Source: a phage
Direction: 5' to 3' (one strand)
Sequence record: PZ445465.1
DNA length: 46,037 nucleotides
The notes under the pieces were generated by a model, which did not search any database, was not told where the DNA came from, and saw only the letters and a program-made list of their open reading frames with translations. Positions 5,572 to 43,306 of the stretch are shown piece by piece. The first letter of the stretch is position 1; the number at the start of each line of letters is the position of its first letter. The translations under genes and the position numbers were made by a program.

Positions 5572-6180
5572 TTAATCATCAAGTTTCACGCCGGGAATTT
5601 TGCCTGCTGCGATGGCTTCATAAATTAGCTTAGCCTCATCCTCGCGCTTGTAATCTTGCGCTACCATTTCTAATACCGCGCAGATAGATTCAAGTACAGC
5701 CTCATGCTTCCTTTCTGCTTCTGTGCGAAATGGGATGAAAACATCCTTATTGGATGGGGTTATTGCGTAGTAAATCTCACCAGATGGTCTGATAACTATT
5801 TTTTCGCCATCAAGACCAATAACCTTGACTTTTCCCCATGACGTTCCGTTGCTGATATACTCACATTCACACCCAACTGGCGGCAGTCCTTCTCCGTTCC
5901 ATGCTGAATTTTTCGATGCTGCGAGCGCTGCTTTGTATTGCCAATAGGTTACTATCGACTCCTTATGGTCGGAAGATAATGGCGTAGCCCATTCTTCTCC
6001 ATACCAGAAATGCACAAGGCTATTGCCAGTGTGGTGTTTCCATGAGAACCCTTCGTAGTGTGGGTCATTCGTGTCCCATACGCACAGTGAACCGTCATTA
6101 TCTTGAGTAATTGACAGCGCGTTTTGAGGCCACCCACCACGCTTAGGCAATTCTTGAACTAACAGGTCGATAAGTTTCAT
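5572..6180 (-). CDS. hypothetical protein (202 aa)
   Basis: ATG at 6180 with GGAGA RBS; last gene of a leftward four-gene cassette; no recognised domain. Confidence 0.6.
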   Translation of the reverse strand: MKLIDLLVQELPKRGGWPQNALSITQDNDGSLCVWDTNDPHYEGFSWKHHTGNSLVHFWYGEEWATPLSSDHKESIVTYWQYKAALAASKNSAWNGEGLPPVGCECEYISNGTSWGKVKVIGLDGEKIVIRPSGEIYYAITPSNKDVFIPFRTEAERKHEAVLESICAVLEMVAQDYKREDEAKLIYEAIAAGKIPGVKLDD

Positions 6181-6192
6181 TTTTGTTCTCCG

Positions 6193-6408
6193 TTAATAAT
6201 TTGGCTTTACGTCTTTCATTGTTAGTGGCTTCCATCCACTTGCGATTGCAATATCAATACAATCCTCAAGCGTTTCAGCTTTTATTGGCTCACCAACTTC
6301 ACTATCATCAAATTTTCTCTGTATTTGATAGCCATCTACGACATAAAGAATCTCTACAGAACCATGTAGTGTGTGCATCGACTCAAGCCATTGCAGGTGG
6401 TAGCTCAT
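6193..6408 (-). CDS. hypothetical protein (71 aa)
   Basis: ATG 6408 with AGGGGG RBS; ATGA overlap with the upstream gene. Confidence 0.55.
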   Translation of the reverse strand: MSYHLQWLESMHTLHGSVEILYVVDGYQIQRKFDDSEVGEPIKAETLEDCIDIAIASGWKPLTMKDVKPNY

Positions 6409-6701
6409 TTTGTTCCCCCTAATGCCTTATTAACCGCAGCACGCGCATTATCTAGAGCGCGGCGCTTACTTGATGTTGTCCAGACTTTGCCGTCTGCAGA
6501 ATCGTAGCATTCAATCATTTGCTGCGTAGCAATAATCAATTCGGAAATAAGCATGTCGCGATATGCTAACTCAGCAGCAATAGCTGATTTTGAGTGCAAT
6601 GATTCAGAGCTCATGGCGCCAACATGCTGTGAATAAAAGCCACCAATTTCATCAAGGATATCTATATCCCGCTCTGCATACAGATTATTGCTGTCAGTCA
6701 T
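6405..6701 (-). CDS. hypothetical protein (98 aa)
   Basis: start moved to ATG 6701, which has a GGAG RBS; track ORF 6405..6725. Confidence 0.5.
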   Translation of the reverse strand: MTDSNNLYAERDIDILDEIGGFYSQHVGAMSSESLHSKSAIAAELAYRDMLISELIIATQQMIECYDSADGKVWTTSSKRRALDNARAAVNKALGGTK

Positions 6702-6859
6702 TTGATATACTCCATAATCTCGCATTCACGCATCTGCACCAGACTAAATGGCGCAACCACTTTGCCGCATGGGCGGATTTTGATTTGCTCAAGGCCGAAC
6801 ATTCCGCAGCGTCCGTTTTCTTTGAATTTGACCATTACCATAATTTCTTCCTCACTCAT
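6698..6859 (-). CDS. hypothetical small protein (53 aa)
   Basis: unlisted ORF MSEEEIMVMVKFKENGRCGMFGLEQ...; stop overlaps the next start as ATGA; weak RBS. Confidence 0.3.
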   Translation of the reverse strand: MSEEEIMVMVKFKENGRCGMFGLEQIKIRPCGKVVAPFSLVQMRECEIMEYIK

Positions 6860-6946: not shown

Positions 6947-7225
6947 ATGAAACTATCGCAACGCGGCATGGAGGTGTTTGGAATTACCGATGCCGTAGAT
7001 ATATCGCCTTACATCACCACTGAGACAACACAGAATCAGTTTGATGCGCTGACAAGCCTTGCCACCGACATCGGCATTGACTCGTTCCGCAAATCAACGC
7101 TTCTGAAGAAACACAATCTCCGCTGCTTCTCATGTGTCGTCGCGCATTTCATCGTGTGGGGTGAGAAGACTGGCGACAAAGCAAAACGCAAGGCTGAAAA
7201 AGAGGTTTACTGGTATGGCTATTAG
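6947..7225 (+). pseudogene. truncated GH24 (T4/P22-type) lysozyme remnant, C-terminal portion only
   Basis: 92-aa ORF containing QNQFDALTSLATDIGIDSFRKSTLLKKHN, the conserved GH24 C-terminal lobe motif, but lacking the N-terminal catalytic segment; overlaps the intact endolysin start. Confidence 0.5.
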
Positions 7226-7679
7226 CAAAAACATGAAGGCGTTTCTGGATATGCTGGCGTACAGCGAGGGCACTGATAACGGGCGGCAGAAAACCAATAA
7301 TCATGGTTATGATGTGATTGTTGGCGGCTCACTGTTTACCGACTATTCCGATCACCCGCGCAAGCTGATTAGCCTGCCTAAGCTGGGCATCAAATCCACT
7401 GCCGCCGGGCGCTATCAGGTGCTGGCTAAATTTTATGATGCGTACAAAAAGCAACTGCGCCTGCCTGACTTCTCCCCCGCGTCACAGGACGCTATCGCAA
7501 TGCAACTAATCCGTGAATGCAAAGCCACCGCCGATATTGAGACTGGTCGCATTGCTGATGCTATCCATAAATGCCGCTCCCGCTGGGCTTCATTACCGGG
7601 CGCTGGCTATGGTCAGCATGAGCAGAAGCTGGATAAGTTGATTCAGGTATACAAAGAGGCTGGCGGAGCTGTGGCATGA
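7215..7679 (+). CDS. R: endolysin, lambda R-type lytic transglycosylase
   Basis: MKAFLDMLAYSEGTDNGRQKTNNHGYDVIVGG...DYSDHPRKL...WASLPGAGYGQ closely matches lambda R; start ATG 7215 within track ORF 7134..7679. Confidence 0.85.
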   Translation: MAISKNMKAFLDMLAYSEGTDNGRQKTNNHGYDVIVGGSLFTDYSDHPRKLISLPKLGIKSTAAGRYQVLAKFYDAYKKQLRLPDFSPASQDAIAMQLIRECKATADIETGRIADAIHKCRSRWASLPGAGYGQHEQKLDKLIQVYKEAGGAVA

Positions 7680-21024: not shown

Positions 21025-21078
21025 ATAAAGCCGCACGAAGCGGCCTTATTGCTGGTTTAAGCATTGCCAGCATGCTTT

Positions 21079-21144
21079 CTTAATATCCAGCCCCGTAACC
21101 CATACATACCCCTACATATGATTGCGATAATGCTGGATATTAAG
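21079..21144. repeat. perfect 13-bp inverted repeat (CTTAATATCCAGC / GCTGGATATTAAG) separated by 40 nt
   Basis: read directly; a second small hairpin GCCGG-N9-CCGGC lies at 21155-21173; located in a ~0.65 kb region of low coding potential. Confidence 0.6.
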
Positions 21145-21688
21145 TGTTGTGGTGGCCGGTGCTGATATCCGGCATAAGGCGCTTATTCGGCGGCGTCGAG
21201 CTTGCTTATTCGCTTGAGCCATCCTCGTGAGTCAGCCACGTCCCACTGCGCATCAGCCTGCGCATTCACCACAACGGAAATAGCACTGGATAACCAAGCG
21301 CGCAGACTCTTCACGATTATCTGCTCAATGCTCTTACCTGTTGTGTGCCACGTTTCGTGTGGCTTACGGCAACGACATTACCTGGTTATTCGCTGCACCC
21401 TTGAGGGATTTACTAAGGCGACATGCCCGTTGTTACCCACGAATGAGAGTACTGTCTTCGAGCAGACTTTGCGCGCAAGAACGACGATCAATCACAATAC
21501 CCTCATTTGTGGGTGCCCATTATTAATCACAGCGGGCCACTGCGCCGAATTTGCTTACAAGGAATCGGAAGACCTTGCTGACTTACAGGCTATTACGCCG
21601 CCATCAGAACAACATCATCGTTTGCATTTATCTTTGTGGTCAGTTTCTAAAAAGTCCGCAAAGTCGCTTACGAAAACCATCTGAAATA

Positions 21689-21733
21689 CAATCTACACCA
21701 CAAAATAATCACTGTCAACACCTGTGATATAAT
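21689..21733 (+). promoter_or_regulatory. promoter of the major tail gene: CAATCTACACC motif, TGTCAACACC, extended -10 TGATATAAT
   Basis: motif 21689-21699; TGATATAAT 21725-21733; GGAGA RBS and ATG 21770 downstream. Confidence 0.5.
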
Positions 21734-21769
21734 CACCACGTTAGCAGCTAACACAATTCGGAGATCGAA

Positions 21770-22486
21770 ATGGCTATTTGTGCAAATGATAAAGGCGTTC
21801 TGGTCGGTCGCATGACCAGACTGTTCCTTGCTGAAGGGTGCGGAGACGCAGTTCCGGAGGCGGGAGACTGGAAGTATTTAGGCTCAACCACCAGTAAGGG
21901 TGTTGACTACTCGCCGCAGACTACCACGTCGGAGGCAGATACCACTGGCGGTTTTGTTTCCACTCTCGTTACCAGCTCTGATATGACCATCAGCGCAGAG
22001 GTGGAAATCCGCAAGAATGACCCGAGCGATGAGTTTGGCTTCCATCGTCTGGTTGAGATTTACGCCACCGAACTGAAAGCTCGTCGCCAGCCTTCCTTGT
22101 GGGTGCGTCAGGTGACTGGTGCGACTATCGTTACGGCGTATTGCAACATCACCAGCATCAGCTACGAAGGTGGTACGAACGATATCGTTACTGGCAGCCT
22201 TGAGTTCAAGGTTTACGATTCTGATAGCGTTACCGTCGAAAGCCTTGAGCCTCTGGCATTCACTACAGACCTGCCATCAACTGGCACGGCTGGCAGCCCG
22301 TTAACTGTTGCTGTTGAAGGTGGTGTCGCTCCTTACACTTATGTATGGCGCAAAGATGGCGTGGTTGTCGGCAGCGAATCAGGCGCGTCTCTGGCAAGCC
22401 CTGCCGCTGGCGTGTATACCGTCACGGTGACTGATTCGTCTACTGACCCTGAAATTATTATCAGCACGGCTTGCACTGTGTCCTGA
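21770..22486 (+). CDS. major tail protein with C-terminal Ig-like domain
   Basis: 238 aa; C-terminal GGVAPYTYVWRKDG...AGVYTVTVTDS is Ig-like; flanked by a strong promoter and a terminator. Confidence 0.65.
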   Translation: MAICANDKGVLVGRMTRLFLAEGCGDAVPEAGDWKYLGSTTSKGVDYSPQTTTSEADTTGGFVSTLVTSSDMTISAEVEIRKNDPSDEFGFHRLVEIYATELKARRQPSLWVRQVTGATIVTAYCNITSISYEGGTNDIVTGSLEFKVYDSDSVTVESLEPLAFTTDLPSTGTAGSPLTVAVEGGVAPYTYVWRKDGVVVGSESGASLASPAAGVYTVTVTDSSTDPEIIISTACTVS

Positions 22487-22493
22487 TAAATAA

Positions 22494-22520
22494 AAAAGCC
22501 CCGGAAGGGGCTTTGTTTTA
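22494..22520. terminator. bidirectional rho-independent terminator
   Basis: AGCCCC-GGAA-GGGGCT flanked by A-run and T-rich tract. Confidence 0.6.
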
Positions 22521-22784
22521 TTCTTGCGGTGGCTCTGGTAGTGGCATCCAGTGGGTGGCATCACTAATCAAGCCATATTCATTAGTTTGAGGGTGATTAC
22601 CGCGCCCATCTCCGTATTTAAAACTCTCCATAAAGCCATAATGTTTATCACCATTAATGTTCACAAAACCGTAATAAGCAGGAATAACGCCGATCTCACA
22701 CGTAACCAGTAAGGGAAAACTAGTTCTCCAGTTTAGCTCGCCAATTACAGGCATCCTCTCACTGCACTTAATCCACTGGATCAT
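22518..22784 (-). CDS. DUF551 domain protein
   Basis: N-terminal WIKCSERMP and C-terminal THWMPLPEPP, characteristic of DUF551. Confidence 0.65.
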   Translation of the reverse strand: MIQWIKCSERMPVIGELNWRTSFPLLVTCEIGVIPAYYGFVNINGDKHYGFMESFKYGDGRGNHPQTNEYGLISDATHWMPLPEPPQE

Positions 22785-22924
22785 ATCACCTTATCCTCAT
22801 CAAAAATCACACCAATCACACGAAGCAAGTCTTTCGCCATGCGTTCAGCTTCTTCATAGTCGTAACCCGCATCGACATACAAATCGGTGTAGAAAATCAG
22901 GTCGGATTTTGTTTGTTCGTTCAT
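22781..22924 (-). CDS. hypothetical small acidic protein (47 aa)
   Basis: unlisted ORF coupled by ATGA overlaps at both ends. Confidence 0.35.
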   Translation of the reverse strand: MNEQTKSDLIFYTDLYVDAGYDYEEAERMAKDLLRVIGVIFDEDKVI

Positions 22925-23115
22925 TTTTTATCGCCGCTCTTAACTAATGCCCAAACAAGCGCGGCGACCCAGCCAATAAAACTCCATCCAACGAGAATAT
23001 TCAGTACGCAGATTGCAGTCGTGTTTACGTGCTTGCGTTGCAGAGCCACAAAAGATGGCAGGAGGTACGCAAATATCACCAACCCAACAAAAAACAACAA
23101 AATAACGACGTCCAT
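22921..23115 (-). CDS. superinfection immunity (Imm-like) membrane protein (putative)
   Basis: 64 aa; LPSFVALQRKHVNTTAICVLNILVGWSFIGWVAALVWAL resembles the GW..GW..AL.WA pattern of small Imm-type superinfection immunity proteins; GAGGT RBS. Confidence 0.5.
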   Translation of the reverse strand: MDVVILLFFVGLVIFAYLLPSFVALQRKHVNTTAICVLNILVGWSFIGWVAALVWALVKSGDKK

Positions 23116-23147
23116 AGCTAACCTCAACTGTTAATAACTTGTTTATA

Positions 23148-23441
23148 TTACATGCCATTCTTTTCACACAAAGCAACAGCCACATCACGCAATTGCTCTT
23201 TAGTCATATCCTTGCGTGCATAAACCATTTCTACGATAGCAAGGCCGATTATTTCTGCTGATTCGTTGTTTTTTGCAGAACCTTTTACCACCACTTCCGC
23301 AAGATTCTTGCTGATACCGTTATCGCGAACATCAGCAGTGTTCATGGCGATTTCTCCAATGTTTTTGCACATATCGGAAGTCGCACTGGCGGCAAAAGAA
23401 GAAGCCAATAGTACAGATGCAATCAACATTTTAATTTTCAT
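23148..23441 (-). CDS. secreted small protein with cleavable signal peptide
   Basis: MKIKMLIASVLLASSFAASA signal peptide and no lipobox; GAGGTG RBS; first gene of the leftward cassette. Confidence 0.5.
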   Translation of the reverse strand: MKIKMLIASVLLASSFAASATSDMCKNIGEIAMNTADVRDNGISKNLAEVVVKGSAKNNESAEIIGLAIVEMVYARKDMTKEQLRDVAVALCEKNGM

Positions 23442-23479
23442 AACTCACCTCATTTATTCATCACTCGTTTCGATGACTT

Positions 23480-23529
23480 GAATCTACATCACCACCTCGC
23501 AGGTGTCAACACCACTGAGATGATATAAT
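23480..23529. promoter_or_regulatory. divergent promoter region: GAATCTACATC motif, GTGTCAACACC, extended -10 TGATATAAT
   Basis: motif 23480-23490; TGATATAAT 23521-23529; between divergent starts 23441 and 23559. Confidence 0.5.
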
Positions 23530-23558
23530 CAACATCAGTCAAATTCAGGATGCAAAAC

Positions 23559-24266
23559 ATGAGCAATCGCACGCCACTAACAGAAATCGGGGAGATGCGC
23601 ATCTCTCTTTCTGACAGGAGTTTTTTCTTTAAGCCATCATTCCGCGCCATGAATGAAATTGGCACACCAAAAGAAATCGTCGAGGTGTACGCTAAGCTCA
23701 ATGGCATTGATTATGTTGCGCCATTGCAGCACGTAGAATACCTACCATTTGGCGCGCAGATGCAGGTTATGAAGACTATCAATAAGCCTGTGTATGGTCG
23801 CCATGTGCTGAGCGCAGCCTATATTGTCATGCAGTCATGCTGTGAAGATGATGTTTCTGTGTTGATTGGTGGCTGGAAGCCAACACCGCGCGGCGTGCGA
23901 TATGTTCCAGGCATCATGCCAGTGAGCGACATTATTATTATTGCGCGTAACCTTATGCAGCATGGCATCATCGGAAAATCTCCACTCAAAGTGCCTGAGC
24001 GTCTGGAAGAGCAGGGAAAGAAAACCACAAACGAGTTTCATGCATCGCAATACATCATCTCAGCACGCACGCATTTCGACATGACGCGCGATGAGGCAGA
24101 AAACCTGTCTATGACAGAGTTTCAGATGATGATTAAGAATAAATATCCAGAGCCGAAAGGGTTAACGAAAGAAGAACGCGCAGCAGAGTACGATCAGGCT
24201 AAAGCAGACCGTGAGCGCATGAAGGCACTGGCTGAACGCAAAGCGAAAAAAGCGAGGAATACATAA
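23559..24266 (+). CDS. tail assembly chaperone (putative)
   Basis: 235-aa ORF immediately upstream of the tape measure gene with TAATG coupling; Lys/Arg-rich C-terminus. Confidence 0.45.
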   Translation: MSNRTPLTEIGEMRISLSDRSFFFKPSFRAMNEIGTPKEIVEVYAKLNGIDYVAPLQHVEYLPFGAQMQVMKTINKPVYGRHVLSAAYIVMQSCCEDDVSVLIGGWKPTPRGVRYVPGIMPVSDIIIIARNLMQHGIIGKSPLKVPERLEEQGKKTTNEFHASQYIISARTHFDMTRDEAENLSMTEFQMMIKNKYPEPKGLTKEERAAEYDQAKADRERMKALAERKAKKARNT

Positions 24267-26748
24267 TGGCTGAAGAAGTCGGCGGAATTGTCTATGAAGT
24301 CGGGATGGATGTATCCGGGCTGACGACTGGCGGGCAAAAGGTAAACAAGGTTCTTCAGGAGATTGAGAAGTCAATTGATGAGTCAATTGCCGGGATAAAT
24401 AAACTTGATACCGGATTAAAAAACACCGCATCGACAGCTGAGAAATCTGGCAGGAGTTTCTCCAGTTTAAATAACGCCATGAGACAGGGCGGCTACCAGA
24501 TTCAGGACTTTGTAGTTCAGGTGCAGAGCGGACAATCGGCACTCGTTGCTTTAAGTCAACAAGGTAGTCAGTTATTAAGCGTCTTTGGTTCTGGAGGCGC
24601 AGTTGCCGGTGCATTGCTAACCATCGGTACGGTAATCGTTGGCTCATTAATTGCTGGCATGGATAACGCAGCCGTTTCCACAAAGGCGCTCACCGCAGCA
24701 CAGCAGCGACTTGCTGACATATTCCAGCTTTCTGCTAATGGAGTTGTAGTTCTCTCTGACAAATTCGCAACACTGGCTAAACAGTCAGAAAACGCCGCCA
24801 GAGCACAGTTAACAATGGCTCTGATTGATGCAAACAATATCATCAAGGCTTCAGTGCAGGGCGTCAATGAGCTTGGCGACGCACTTGGCTCATGGAAAGC
24901 GCCACTATCAGCCGCCATCAGCCAGCTTGACACACTGAAAGCAAGAGGCATTGATGTAAACACAGCACTCAAGAATCTTGGCGGGACATATGAGGGTAAT
25001 ATCCTCGGACTAAACCAGCTTAATCAGGTGGTAAAAAGTCTGGCAGATGAGTTTGGCATAAGCGCCGAGGATGCTTTGAAGCTGGTTGAAGCTCTGGCGG
25101 CGGTGAGAAAAAACGCCAATCCTGAAACAATAGCAGAATTACGTGACCTGACTGTTGACCTTAGTCAGAAATATGGATATGCAAACAAGTCGCTATCTGA
25201 ACTGACTGGCAAGGTTGGCGAATATTCCATTTCAGCAGATCAGGCAGCAGAATCTACAAAAATGGCTACCGACATGCTTAACGGTCACAAGGTAGCTTCA
25301 GAAGAGGATGCGAGAGCAACTGAAGAAAACACGAAAAGGCTTCAGGCTTACATCCAGTCGATCAAGGAAGAAGGTGAAACCATCGCCTTTACCGCCAGAC
25401 AAAAGGCTCTGTACAGAGCAGAGCAGCTTGGAGCAAGTGACGCAGATAAGCAAACAATCAACTCGTCGTTCGACAAGATAGAGGCTTACAAAGCTGAACT
25501 TGCCGCAAAGAAAGAGCAGGAAAGGCAAGATAAAAAACGCATAACTGCATCAACAAAACAGGCCAATCTTGAAGAGTCGGTAGCTCAGAAGCTGGAAAAA
25601 TTACGCCAGCAAACCATGCTCAATGCCACGTCTACCAGCGAACTATCACGCGAGCAAGCAATTCTCAACGCGCAGCAATCGCTTGGCAAGGCCGCCACTC
25701 AGGAGCAAATAAAACTGGCTGGTGAGTACGCTGCGAAGATTTGGGACCAGAAGAATGCATTGAAGGAGCAAGCAGAAGCGGAAAAAGAAAAGCAACGCGT
25801 AGAAAAATCATATCAAGGGTTGCGCGCTATTGCATCGCCAACCACTGGCATTGACAGTGAATACCAGCAACGTATGGCTGACCTTGACGCCTACGCCGCA
25901 GCATATCCGCAGAAAATCACGGAGATTGAGCAGACTCGCGCAGCAATTGAAGCACAATACCGCCAACAGCGAATGGACGCTATGTGGGCTGAATGGCAGC
26001 AACAAAGCCTCGGTGCGCAACTGTTCGGTACCGCTCTTGATTCAGCAATGAGTACGGCATCAAACAGCATCACCGGATTGCTTACCGGAACGATGAGCGT
26101 TCAGGATGCCATGCGCAGCCTCGGCTCTACGGTGCTGAACTCTCTGGTAAACAGCTTCATTGAAATGGGTGTGCAGTGGGTTAAATCTGCTGTTATGGGG
26201 CAGACTGCACAGGTTGCGGCTACGGCAACCACAACGGCGGCGCAAACGGCAGGATTGGCAACCACAACAGCAGCATCTACGGCGGCGGCAGCAACCACTA
26301 CGGCGGCATGGACTCCGGCAGCAATCGTCGCATCAATCGGCTCATTCGGCGGGGCGGCTGCAATTGGGGTAGGTGCCGTTCTCGGAGCGCTGGCGATGGG
26401 CATTGCTGGCAAGCGTAAAAATGGTGGCCCTGTTAGTGCCGGAAGTATGTACGAAGTTGGCGAAAATGGCTTGCCTGAAATATTCCAGGCGTCCAACGGC
26501 CGCCAGTATATGATTCCCGGTAACGATGGATCAGTTATCAGCAACAAAGACCTGACAGGCGGCAGCAGTGGCGTTGTAGTTTATAATAGCATTATCAATA
26601 ACAGCTCAGCGCAGGTTAGCAGCAGCGCCAGAGATAATGGTGACGGCAGCGTGACGATTGAGACGATTGTGAGTGATATAGAAAACAACGGCCCCATTGG
26701 GCAAAGCATTAGCCGCAACTACTCAGCAAACCGGAGAGCAACCGAATA

Positions 26749-26749
<1 letters not shown>
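24266..26749 (+). CDS. tail tape measure protein
   Basis: 827 aa, extensive coiled-coil-like low-complexity sequence, Ala/Thr-rich repeat and hydrophobic C-terminal segment; located between chaperone and minor tail genes. Confidence 0.85.
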
Positions 26750-31471
<4,722 letters not shown>

Positions 31472-43277: not shown

Positions 43278-43306
43278 TTGACGTAGAAACATCATTGATG
43301 TAGATT
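43278..43306 (+). promoter_or_regulatory. sigma70-like promoter TTGACG-N17-TAGATT overlapping motif copies
   Basis: TTGACGTAGAAAC (43278-43290) and GATGTAGATTG (43297-43307); GAGGG RBS and ATG 43337 downstream. Confidence 0.45.

Follow-up and report, generated by a model that had tools for sequence, protein, structure and literature searches.

A Modular Leftward Gene Cassette with a T4 Imm-Family Gene in the Tail Module of a Bas79-Related Phage

Introduction

To our knowledge, the way in which virulent phages exclude superinfection is understood in detail only in T4, where Imm and Spackle are responsible, and in the case of receptor-blocking lipoproteins such as Llp of T5 and Cor of T1. T4 Imm is active against injection by T-even myoviruses. 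Exclusion in T4 is exerted by Imm and Spackle jointly, and Spackle is described as an early gene product (PMC7677548). Cor, present in T1 and phi80, and Llp of T5 are outer-membrane lipoproteins of small siphoviruses which block a porin receptor and whose genes are linked to the locus of the receptor-binding protein. The presence of exclusion genes among tail genes is an arrangement noted for porin-targeting phages (PMC11990801).

The locus described here is a cassette of four leftward genes in the tail module of phage PZ445465.1, analysed within a window of 46,037 nucleotides (the whole stretch of DNA under study). Its second gene, imm, is homologous to T4 imm, sharing the invariant residues and encoding a similarly small protein with two predicted transmembrane segments, and in both cases the phage lacks a lysogenic cycle. 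The Imm of the T-even phage MX01 is 78 aa long, compared with 64 aa here, and its gene adjoins a DNA polymerase gene, whereas the present imm lies reversed within a siphovirus tail module. The location of an exclusion-type gene among the tail genes of a virulent siphovirus recalls Cor and Llp, but here the O-antigen serves as receptor, and Imm, the candidate factor, is a probable inner-membrane protein whose gene lies beside the tape-measure region.

The cassette also resembles the morons of temperate phages such as HK97 and lambda, being an extra block between conserved structural genes that relatives lack, that has a promoter and a terminator to itself and that is slightly lower in GC content. 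However, a moron is a single gene serving prophage expression and lysogenic conversion, whereas this locus has at least five exchangeable slots and no such function, in a group described as lytic. The term "moron", used in the earlier note on this DNA, is therefore apt for the insertion and for the conserved promoter and terminator, but not for expression from a prophage; it fits only loosely, and T4's own imm is a closer analogy.

The reading favoured here, with a probability of about 0.6, is that the cassette is an independently transcribed accessory operon at a hotspot where genes are swapped in, that Imm most likely acts like T4 Imm, and that the first gene product, g97, is probably a separate envelope factor.

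The Phage and Its Relatives

The cassette region of PZ445465.1 is ~98.5% identical to that of the BASEL phage Bas79, a member of the virulent Skatevirus group in which imm and the DUF551 gene have already been annotated. The annotation of Bas79, which comprises 90 genes, lists no integrase or repressor, and members of Skatevirus are lytic according to the papers describing them. On these grounds, the phage looks like a virulent Skatevirus-type siphovirus of E. coli or Salmonella. The Skatevirus isolates Bas77-81 depend on the O-antigen, a receptor whose blocking during lytic infection is impractical, as the BASEL authors argue (PMC11990801). A block of DNA entry would thus be a sensible strategy for such phages.

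Anatomy of the Cassette

The features of the region are as follows.

21770..22486, + strand: major tail protein gene (left flank); phrog_853 "major tail protein", E 1.7e-87
22495..22514, both strands: bidirectional intrinsic terminator; stem AAAGCCCC, loop GGAA, stem GGGGCTTT
22518..22784, - strand: DUF551 gene, 88 aa, pI 5.2, C-terminus WMPLPEPPQE; last and variable gene of the operon; phrog_60
22781..22924, - strand: g47, 47 aa, acidic, pI 4.1; phrog_17424, E 2e-36
22921..23115, - strand: imm, 64 aa, ATG start with GAGG ribosome-binding site; T4 Imm superinfection-immunity family
23148..23441, - strand: g97, 97 aa, first gene of the operon; phrog_2315
23509..23481, - strand: leftward sigma-70-type promoter; -35 TTGACA, 17-nt spacer, -10 TAGATT
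23521-23529, + strand: rightward extended -10 element TGATATAAT, read from the sequence, back-to-back with the leftward promoter
23550..24266, + strand: DUF6246 gene (right flank), directly upstream of the tape measure gene; PF19759, E 1e-73
24266-26749: following ORF (tape measure), TMP_2 match

All four ORFs (22518-23441) were found on the - strand inside the tail module, as the earlier note had proposed, running from the promoter through g97, imm, g47 and the DUF551 gene to the terminator. At the imm/g47 and g47/DUF551 junctions, start and stop codons overlap within 4 nt, and the GC content of the cassette is 42.4%, against 46.7%. The right-hand neighbour, previously called the tail chaperone, does lie where that note placed it, but Pfam gives DUF6246; a role as tail assembly chaperone is suggested by its position only.

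The bracketing of the cassette by a bidirectional terminator and a divergent promoter was also borne out. The hairpin, whose two sides carry an A-run and a T-run, folds as RNA with -15.4 and -16.1 kcal/mol on the two strands and is kept in all 35 related loci. In the two most divergent of these loci (L049/L050), a G-C pair of the stem is replaced by C-G, a compensatory change. Transcription rightward from the major tail gene and transcription leftward through the cassette are both predicted to end here. No Rfam family matched at the gathering threshold over the whole window.

The leftward promoter matches 10 of 12 consensus positions. Its -35 and -10 hexamers are invariant in 15/15 aligned loci, including divergent ones with altered flanks, and the same 5' leader is present whichever gene leads, g97 or imm. 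The opposing TGATATAAT element, a putative promoter for the DUF6246 and tape-measure genes, is conserved in the clade, with TGGTATAAT at the equivalent position in L049/L050. An exact twin of the leftward promoter occurs at 21718..21690, itself paired with the same rightward extended -10 element at 21725-21733; the promoter pattern has three matches in the window, compared with 0.21 expected. In relatives, a leftward tRNA array sits behind the twin, which suggests that such promoters may be read by the host polymerase and need not depend on the structural operon. By its consensus match and conservation, the cassette promoter may be active during infection without regard to the late structural genes.

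The g97 Protein and the Question of a Spackle Analogue

The description of the 97-aa product as a signal-peptide protein is supported by an n/h/c-type signal peptide of ~20 residues (MKIK / MLIASVLLASSF / AASA, then TS). A mature domain of ~77 residues follows, and the protein has two cysteines. In the AF2 model it forms a four-helix bundle (pLDDT 81 overall, ~90 over residues 23-94). The family is small: a set of 1.84 billion proteins contains only 22 representatives, in which C25, R39 and C92 are invariant, and D40, G42 and Y74 nearly so. Export, cleavage of the signal peptide and a Cys25-Cys92 disulfide are putative features of the protein.

No Pfam, NCBIfam or PADLOC family was assigned to g97 beyond signal-peptide or transmembrane noise, and profile, fold and database searches returned no functional annotation. 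Its BFVD matches, with probability ~1.0, are other small phage proteins that are exported or are lipoproteins, among them the "Exported phage protein" of Vi II-E1. In effect, g97 represents an uncharacterised family of exported proteins with a predicted four-helix fold. A saposin-like fold (3s64, 2jsa, 4uex) is not claimed for g97, as the Foldseek E-values exceed 1, a level no better than noise for small helical bundles; in addition, saposins have three disulfides, compared with the single cysteine pair of g97.

One alternative, an unlikely one, holds that g97 is an analogue of Spackle, i.e., a periplasmic inhibitor of the cell-wall hydrolase of an incoming tail, which together with Imm would provide a two-layer exclusion like that of T4. 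The gross design of the two exported proteins is indeed common (PMC7677548). Both g97 and T4 Spackle (gp61.3, PF25676) are 97-aa precursors with a signal peptide, a helical mature domain of ~75-77 residues and one cysteine pair. Two distant members of the g97 family give faint matches to PF25676 T4_Spackle (E 0.24), g97 homologues adjoin a GH24 endolysin gene in two distant phages, and the phage's own tail includes a gpK-like NlpC/P60 domain protein (28558-29073); no GH24 domain was found among its tail proteins. The conserved motif of the g97 family, C-x3-G...RDxG[VI][SP]...VY...C, is nevertheless different from that of Spackle. Similarly, Spackle is partnered by Imm, and g97 stands alongside imm in 13/35 loci, but it also occurs without imm. 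Homology to Spackle was tried and rejected, since g97 has no Pfam match and hhalign against the Spackle alignment covers only residues 1-20, the signal peptide; no fold homology to Spackle was found either.

The imm Product

The small membrane protein had been likened to Imm-type immunity proteins, and the Pfam search agrees. The protein matches Imm_superinfect (PF14373) with E 1.6e-17 and 63.6 bits (cutoff 27.9), the alignment spanning positions 2-42 of the 42-position profile. It also matches phrog_1039 "immunity to superinfection" with E 1e-23. With tblastn, T-even imm genes are found at 40-47% identity over residues 16-60. The residues invariant across 8 lineages of the family (Y17, P20, N39, G43, W44, W49) are all present. 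Two hydrophobic segments, at about residues 1-25 and 35-59 (Kyte-Doolittle windows >1.6), and a GRAVY of 1.31 indicate a probable inner-membrane protein; an alternative TTG start, giving 68 aa, is also open. Judged by its sequence, the imm product is a genuine member of the T4 Imm family, and this membership suggests a function in exclusion.

It is unlikely that Imm instead has a role outside exclusion, namely in membrane integrity, lysis timing or protection against lysis from without, with its label simply carried over from T4. The family name is based on T4 genetics alone, and the literature searched yielded no tested homologue with a demonstrated phenotype outside T-even phages. Moreover, the members are very short proteins with two transmembrane segments, and imm is dispensable in many members of the clade. 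However, the phage has a separate lysis cluster, consisting of an endolysin-like ORF, a DUF7940 membrane protein and a DUF2514 protein, the latter two annotated in Bas79 as holin and Rz-like spanin, respectively. The signature Y..P...N...GW....W, preserved from T-even phages through actinophages, also suggests a conserved molecular activity.

Three siphovirus lineages, Skatevirus, Jerseyvirus and Nonanavirus, have a reversed imm adjoining the genes of the tail chaperone and the tape measure. On a speculative and unlikely reading, this linkage could reflect blocking by Imm of an inner-membrane DNA channel mediated by the tape measure protein. If so, imm would be placed with respect to DNA entry much as the Cor and Llp genes, linked to receptor-binding protein genes, are with respect to the receptor.

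g47 and the DUF551 Protein

The two remaining products are probably small, soluble and cytoplasmic. For g47, the acidic 47-aa protein of the earlier description, a two-helix hairpin is predicted by AF2 (helices 3-18 and 23-36, pLDDT 89.8). Its homologues are confined to this phage clade, and Pfam, NCBIfam and PADLOC gave nothing past signal-peptide or transmembrane noise. The identification of the last product as a DUF551 protein was upheld by PF04448 (E 4.9e-12, 47 bits, cutoff 22), with a match covering all 68 positions of the profile. Neither protein has a signal peptide or a hydrophobic segment, and DUF551 is a portable domain which occurs in cytoplasmic proteins (PMC10834534, PMC4776307). 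The notion of an envelope-acting cassette can accordingly be retained for g97 and Imm as probable envelope proteins, but not for g47 and the DUF551 protein.

Insertion, Gene Exchange and Selection

The cassette is a clade-specific insertion. It is present between the major tail and DUF6246 genes in loci L017-L052, whereas more distant relatives (L053-L065), with 39-47% identity in the DUF6246 protein, lack the cassette and have nothing separating these two genes.

The gene content of the cassette varies considerably. Among 35 relatives, 13 carry both g97 and imm, 8 g97 alone, 12 imm alone and 2 neither; imm is thus absent from 10/35 and g97 from 14/35, which means that neither gene is needed for viability and that any benefit from them must be conditional. 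The only near-constant gene is g47, present in 34/35 loci. The g97 family occurs in the hotspot as 97-aa and as 112-116-aa alleles, and some relatives encode, close to the promoter, an additional protein of 91-93 aa that has a hydrophobic stretch at its C-terminus. The DUF551 allele of most relatives has 58-70 aa and is 44-51% identical to the present one, while the 88-aa allele is found only in Bas79, L022 and L047.

These short ORFs are more than chance occurrences, as indicated by dN/dS values across relatives of 0.050 (g47), 0.071 (imm) and 0.121 (g97), compared with 0.053 and 0.028 for the structural genes on either side. Thus, g97, imm and g47 are under purifying selection, with dN/dS of 0.05-0.12; the alleles of the DUF551 gene were too divergent for inclusion.

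The pattern of exchange bears on the proposal that the four genes form one coordinated moron-type envelope system, in which a secreted protein, an Imm-like protein and two helpers jointly exclude superinfection. One promoter and one terminator are common to all four genes, and translational coupling links the last three. The products of the two genes nearest the promoter are probable envelope proteins, and in other relatives the extra 91-93-aa protein with its hydrophobic stretch is likewise encoded near the promoter. Nevertheless, g97 and imm assort independently (Fisher p = 0.25 over the 35 loci), and distant g97 homologues lie in unrelated contexts without imm. The two supposed helpers lack export signals and membrane segments, the DUF551 gene is absent or replaced by its divergent alleles, and the annotation of Bas79 includes no integrase or repressor. 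Such a coordinated system is consequently quite improbable, and the region is a modular hotspot in which genes are mixed and matched, not a single system of four parts. An obligate partnership of g97 and imm is ruled out by the contexts of the distant homologues and by the architecture counts.

That the cassette genes are essential virion or assembly components on the opposite strand, as their location inside the tail module and the near-constancy of g47 might suggest, is very improbable and largely refuted for g97, imm and the DUF551 gene, each of which is naturally missing in some members, including isolated phages (the Vi II-E1-type L031; L017, probably seszw), in a cassette that is absent from distant relatives with homologous flanking tail genes and is served by a promoter and a terminator of its own; g47 alone escapes these grounds.

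Discussion

According to the favoured reading, that of an independently transcribed accessory operon, the cassette came by insertion into one Skatevirus-type clade, where it follows the major tail gene and precedes the genes for DUF6246 and the tape measure. Genes would be exchanged exactly at the start codon, behind a constant promoter and leader, so that each could work alone. Imm would be an inner-membrane protein made during infection from a promoter read by the host RNA polymerase, and it would most likely act as T4 Imm does, barring the DNA of later phages from crossing the inner membrane. The g97 product would be a periplasmic, disulfide-stabilised four-helix protein, probably a second, independent factor at the level of the envelope.

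A broader and more speculative reading, which is unlikely to hold in full, would see the promoter-proximal slots of the hotspot as interchangeable envelope modules against superinfection. These would be Imm, the g97 family in both allele sizes and the 91-93-aa protein, with the g97 family forming a new periplasmic exclusion class that is analogous, yet unrelated, to Spackle.

The feature is fairly ordinary and has been annotated before. If none of the functional proposals holds, the locus is an ordinary accessory-gene hotspot, already annotated in part. As a small, tractable system in a publicly collected phage (Bas79), the cassette allows the role of the Imm family to be asked about outside T-even phages and in a setting where the O-antigen receptor cannot practically be masked. 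The g97 family and the proximity of imm to the tape-measure gene in three siphovirus lineages provide concrete, testable hypotheses. Additionally, mutual exclusion among members would be of practical importance in therapy cocktails composed of Skatevirus or Jerseyvirus phages of Salmonella and E. coli. Within the Bas77-81 collection, natural differences in the carriage of imm or g97 may exist; Bas79 and Bas81, the two that were checked, both contain imm and g97.

Organization of the leftward cassette

The region of this siphovirus genome (~46 kb) described here is an ordinary but tidy accessory hotspot with a bona fide Imm-family gene. Over 21700-24300, identity to Escherichia phage SusanneMuster_Bas79 (Bas79), a close relative from the BASEL collection, is 98.5%, and this segment matches 159 phage records, chiefly of Salmonella and Escherichia phages; the genera of sampled relatives include Skatevirus and Deseoctovirus. 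The earlier note had described four leftward genes between the major tail gene and the tail chaperone gene, bracketed by a bidirectional terminator and a divergent promoter. This observation is confirmed, as the genes lie where they were placed and both signals were found and are conserved in relatives, while its interpretation is partly supported.

Features of the cassette and its surroundings
21718..21690, - strand: exact twin of the cassette promoter, TTGACA-17-TAGATT, upstream of the major tail gene
21725-21733, + strand: TGATATAAT paired with the twin promoter
21770-22486: major tail protein gene, left flank (phrog_853)
22495-22514, both strands: bidirectional terminator hairpin (terminator scoring on each strand)
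22518-22784, - strand: DUF551 gene, ORF of 88 aa
22781-22924, - strand: g47, ORF of 47 aa, pI 4.1
22921-23115, - strand: imm, ORF of 64 aa, GAGG ahead of ATG
23148-23441, - strand: g97, ORF of 97 aa
23509..23481, - strand: cassette promoter, TTGACA-17-TAGATT (consensus and conservation)
23521-23529, + strand: extended -10 TGATATAAT, back-to-back with the leftward cassette promoter
23550-24266: DUF6246 gene, right flank, directly upstream of the tape measure gene

The imm/g47 and g47/DUF551 junctions are 4-nt start/stop overlaps. The profile searches proposed in the earlier note were positive for both Imm_superinfect (63.6 bits; Pfam curated cutoff 27.9) and DUF551 (47 bits; cutoff 22), and PHROGs assignments agree for both. 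Comparison among relatives gave dN/dS values of 0.050 (g47), 0.071 (imm) and 0.121 (g97, the fastest-evolving of the three), next to 0.053 and 0.028 for the flanking structural genes; the DUF551 gene was left out, its alleles being too divergent. Therefore, the short ORFs g47, imm and g97 are coding and under selection.

Transcription signals

The terminator hairpin is kept in 35/35 related loci; in the two that have diverged furthest, the stem carries a compensatory change. In the cassette promoter, the -35 and -10 hexamers are invariant in 15/15 aligned loci, even amid diverged surroundings. Cassettes that open with g97 and those that open with imm share one and the same 5' leader and ribosome-binding site, which indicates that the promoter stays in place while modules are swapped exactly from the start codon.

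The promoter pattern has three matches in the window against 0.21 expected. In relatives, the twin promoter drives a leftward tRNA array whose size varies from 0 to 4 genes (Met, Arg, Ser, Thr and Ile types); this suggests that the cassette promoter is transcribed by the host polymerase, independently of the structural operon. No tRNA genes occur in this leftward unit in the window or Bas79. The third match, at 43278-43306 (+), reads TTGACG-17-TAGATT, with one mismatch, and could be a further promoter of this class; the corresponding part of Bas79 contains small hypothetical genes.

About 650 bp (21030-21770) separate the major tail gene from the gene before it and hold no convincing ORF; the same stretch in Bas79 is annotated with three + strand 'hypothetical' ORFs. 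A likely terminator hairpin at ~21028-21050 was spotted by eye. The only Rfam match in this stretch, to tmRNA_permuted, is sub-threshold (28.5 bits against 47), overlaps the promoter and is probably spurious.

A modular insertion

With the DUF6246 protein as anchor, 54 viral loci were fetched, and the ORFs between the major tail and DUF6246 genes were classified. In loci L053-L065, whose DUF6246 protein is 39-47% identical, the two genes abut or slightly overlap (largest gap ~60 bp), which marks the cassette, by gene order, as a clade-specific insertion.

Module combinations among the 35 clade loci
g97 and imm: 13/35
g97 (or its 112-116-aa allele) without imm: 8/35
imm without g97: 12/35
neither: 2/35

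Across these loci, g97 and imm show no association (Fisher p = 0.25). The sole near-constant gene is g47 (34/35 loci), whose homologues are confined to the clade. The DUF551 gene is either absent from relatives or represented by alleles 44-51% identical to that of the window, and an optional 96-137-aa gene may stand between it and g47. In some clade phages, an extra leftward gene of 91-93 aa separates the promoter from g97 or imm (L038 3636-3917; L051 3636-3917; L007 2098-2373); given its C-terminal hydrophobic stretch, the product of this promoter-proximal slot is probably a membrane protein too. One phage carries a 222-aa ORF with a DNA methyltransferase-like N-terminal motif, as judged by eye. 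In the minimal form, a 112-aa g97 allele is followed directly by g47, without imm or DUF551 (L012 53-547; L031 3398-3892); this allele shares the signal peptide of the window's g97, and its mature domain is ~34% identical.

The moron reading of the earlier note fits the anatomy: like a moron, the cassette occupies a site between conserved genes that is empty in some relatives, carries a promoter and a terminator of its own, and is slightly lower in GC (42.4% vs 46.7%). The label fails biologically, however, because nothing indicates a prophage state. No integrase or repressor is found among Bas79 annotations, and other members of the genus are described as lytic in papers on them.

The Imm-family protein

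Membership of the imm product in the T4 Imm family is solidly supported by sequence. Annotated T-even imm genes are matched by tblastn at 40-47% identity, and the protein has two hydrophobic segments. It retains every invariant residue (Y17, P20, N39, G43, W44, W49) of an alignment of T-even, Jerseyvirus, Nonanavirus, N4-like, Acinetobacter, Gordonia and Mycobacterium phage proteins. In T4, Imm and Spackle jointly confer superinfection exclusion (PMC7677548); because T4 Imm acts in this process, we infer by analogy an exclusion function for the window protein. A literature search found no functionally tested Imm homologue outside T-even phages.

An Imm-family gene also lies reversed next to the genes for the tail assembly chaperone and the tape measure in Jerseyvirus (Salmonella phage Shelanagig, L078 1468-1647) and Nonanavirus (Escherichia phage PJ16, L079 1462-1641). 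A common permissive site, or a functional connection with the tape measure protein, could explain this recurrence in two other siphovirus lineages. Elsewhere the location differs: imm occupies early, replication or immunity regions in T-even, N4-like, Acinetobacter, Gordonia and Mycobacterium phages. In Mycobacterium phage Pelly (L083 811-1110 and 2318-2635), an annotated Sec-signal 'secreted protein' lies three genes from an Imm-like gene, adjoining the immunity repressor; this proximity is possibly coincidence.

The g97 family

The g97 product starts with a canonical signal peptide, for which the -3/-1 rule predicts cleavage after A18-S19-A20, and its AF2 model is a confident four-helix domain (pLDDT ~90 over residues 23-94). 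When 1.84 billion representative proteins were searched exhaustively by profile, only 22 family members came up, all consisting of a signal peptide and a ~75-residue domain, with C25, R39 and C92 invariant and D40, G42 and Y74 near-invariant. Many other small phage proteins in BFVD, exported ones or lipoproteins and none of them characterised, show this fold; among them, the 'Exported phage protein' of Vi II-E1 is the 112-aa allele.

Because T4 pairs Imm with Spackle, a 97-aa periplasmic helical protein, g97 was compared directly with the latter. The Spackle sequence used equals T4 orf 61.3 at 100%. Comparison of the two families by hhalign aligned the signal peptides alone, and g97 is therefore rejected as a Spackle homologue; a Spackle-like job is at most a remote possibility.

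Distant homologues lie in varied accessory or early regions, never with imm in the examined contexts. Two of them (24-30% identity; L008 4001-4297; L011 4001-4291) lie outside the tail module, where each opens a cassette oriented divergently from a GH24 endolysin gene; the next ORF encodes 43 aa in both. These ~48 kb phages share portal, Mu-F-like head morphogenesis and lysis gene layout with the window, whose equivalent cassette (5572-6859, -) holds no g97 paralogue.

Proposed mechanism and novelty

For the functional steps, we infer the following scheme. A host-type promoter would yield a leftward transcript of g97, imm, g47 and DUF551, ending at the shared hairpin terminator. Imm, placed in the inner membrane, would keep out the DNA of phages that arrive later, as in T4; g97 would have a separate role in the periplasm, and g47 and DUF551 would work in the cytoplasm. 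Neither of the last two resembles an envelope protein. The g47 product is a predicted acidic two-helix hairpin (pLDDT 90) without a hydrophobic segment, and DUF551 is a portable domain, reported for YfdS and an Ea22 variant among other cytoplasmic proteins (PMC10834534, PMC4776307). The Skatevirus siblings Bas77-81 are small, O16-antigen-dependent siphoviruses (PMC11990801). A DNA-entry block would be a sensible strategy for such a phage, because its O-antigen receptor is abundant and masking it during the lytic cycle was argued to be impractical by the BASEL authors (PMC11990801).

Many GenBank entries for this phage group already carry annotations for both imm and DUF551. Modestly new are the modular-slot structure, the definition of the g97 family, and the recurrence of reversed imm in Jerseyvirus and Nonanavirus.

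Observations in the lysis region

Upstream of the endolysin, a 92-aa ORF (6947-7225) aligns with Pfam Phage_lysozyme over the C-terminal part of the profile alone (positions 55-114 of 125) and so looks like a GH24 fragment. The next ORF (7215-7679, 154 aa) has no Pfam match at E <= 0.1 and appears lambda R-like by eye. Both are labelled 'endolysin' in Bas79.
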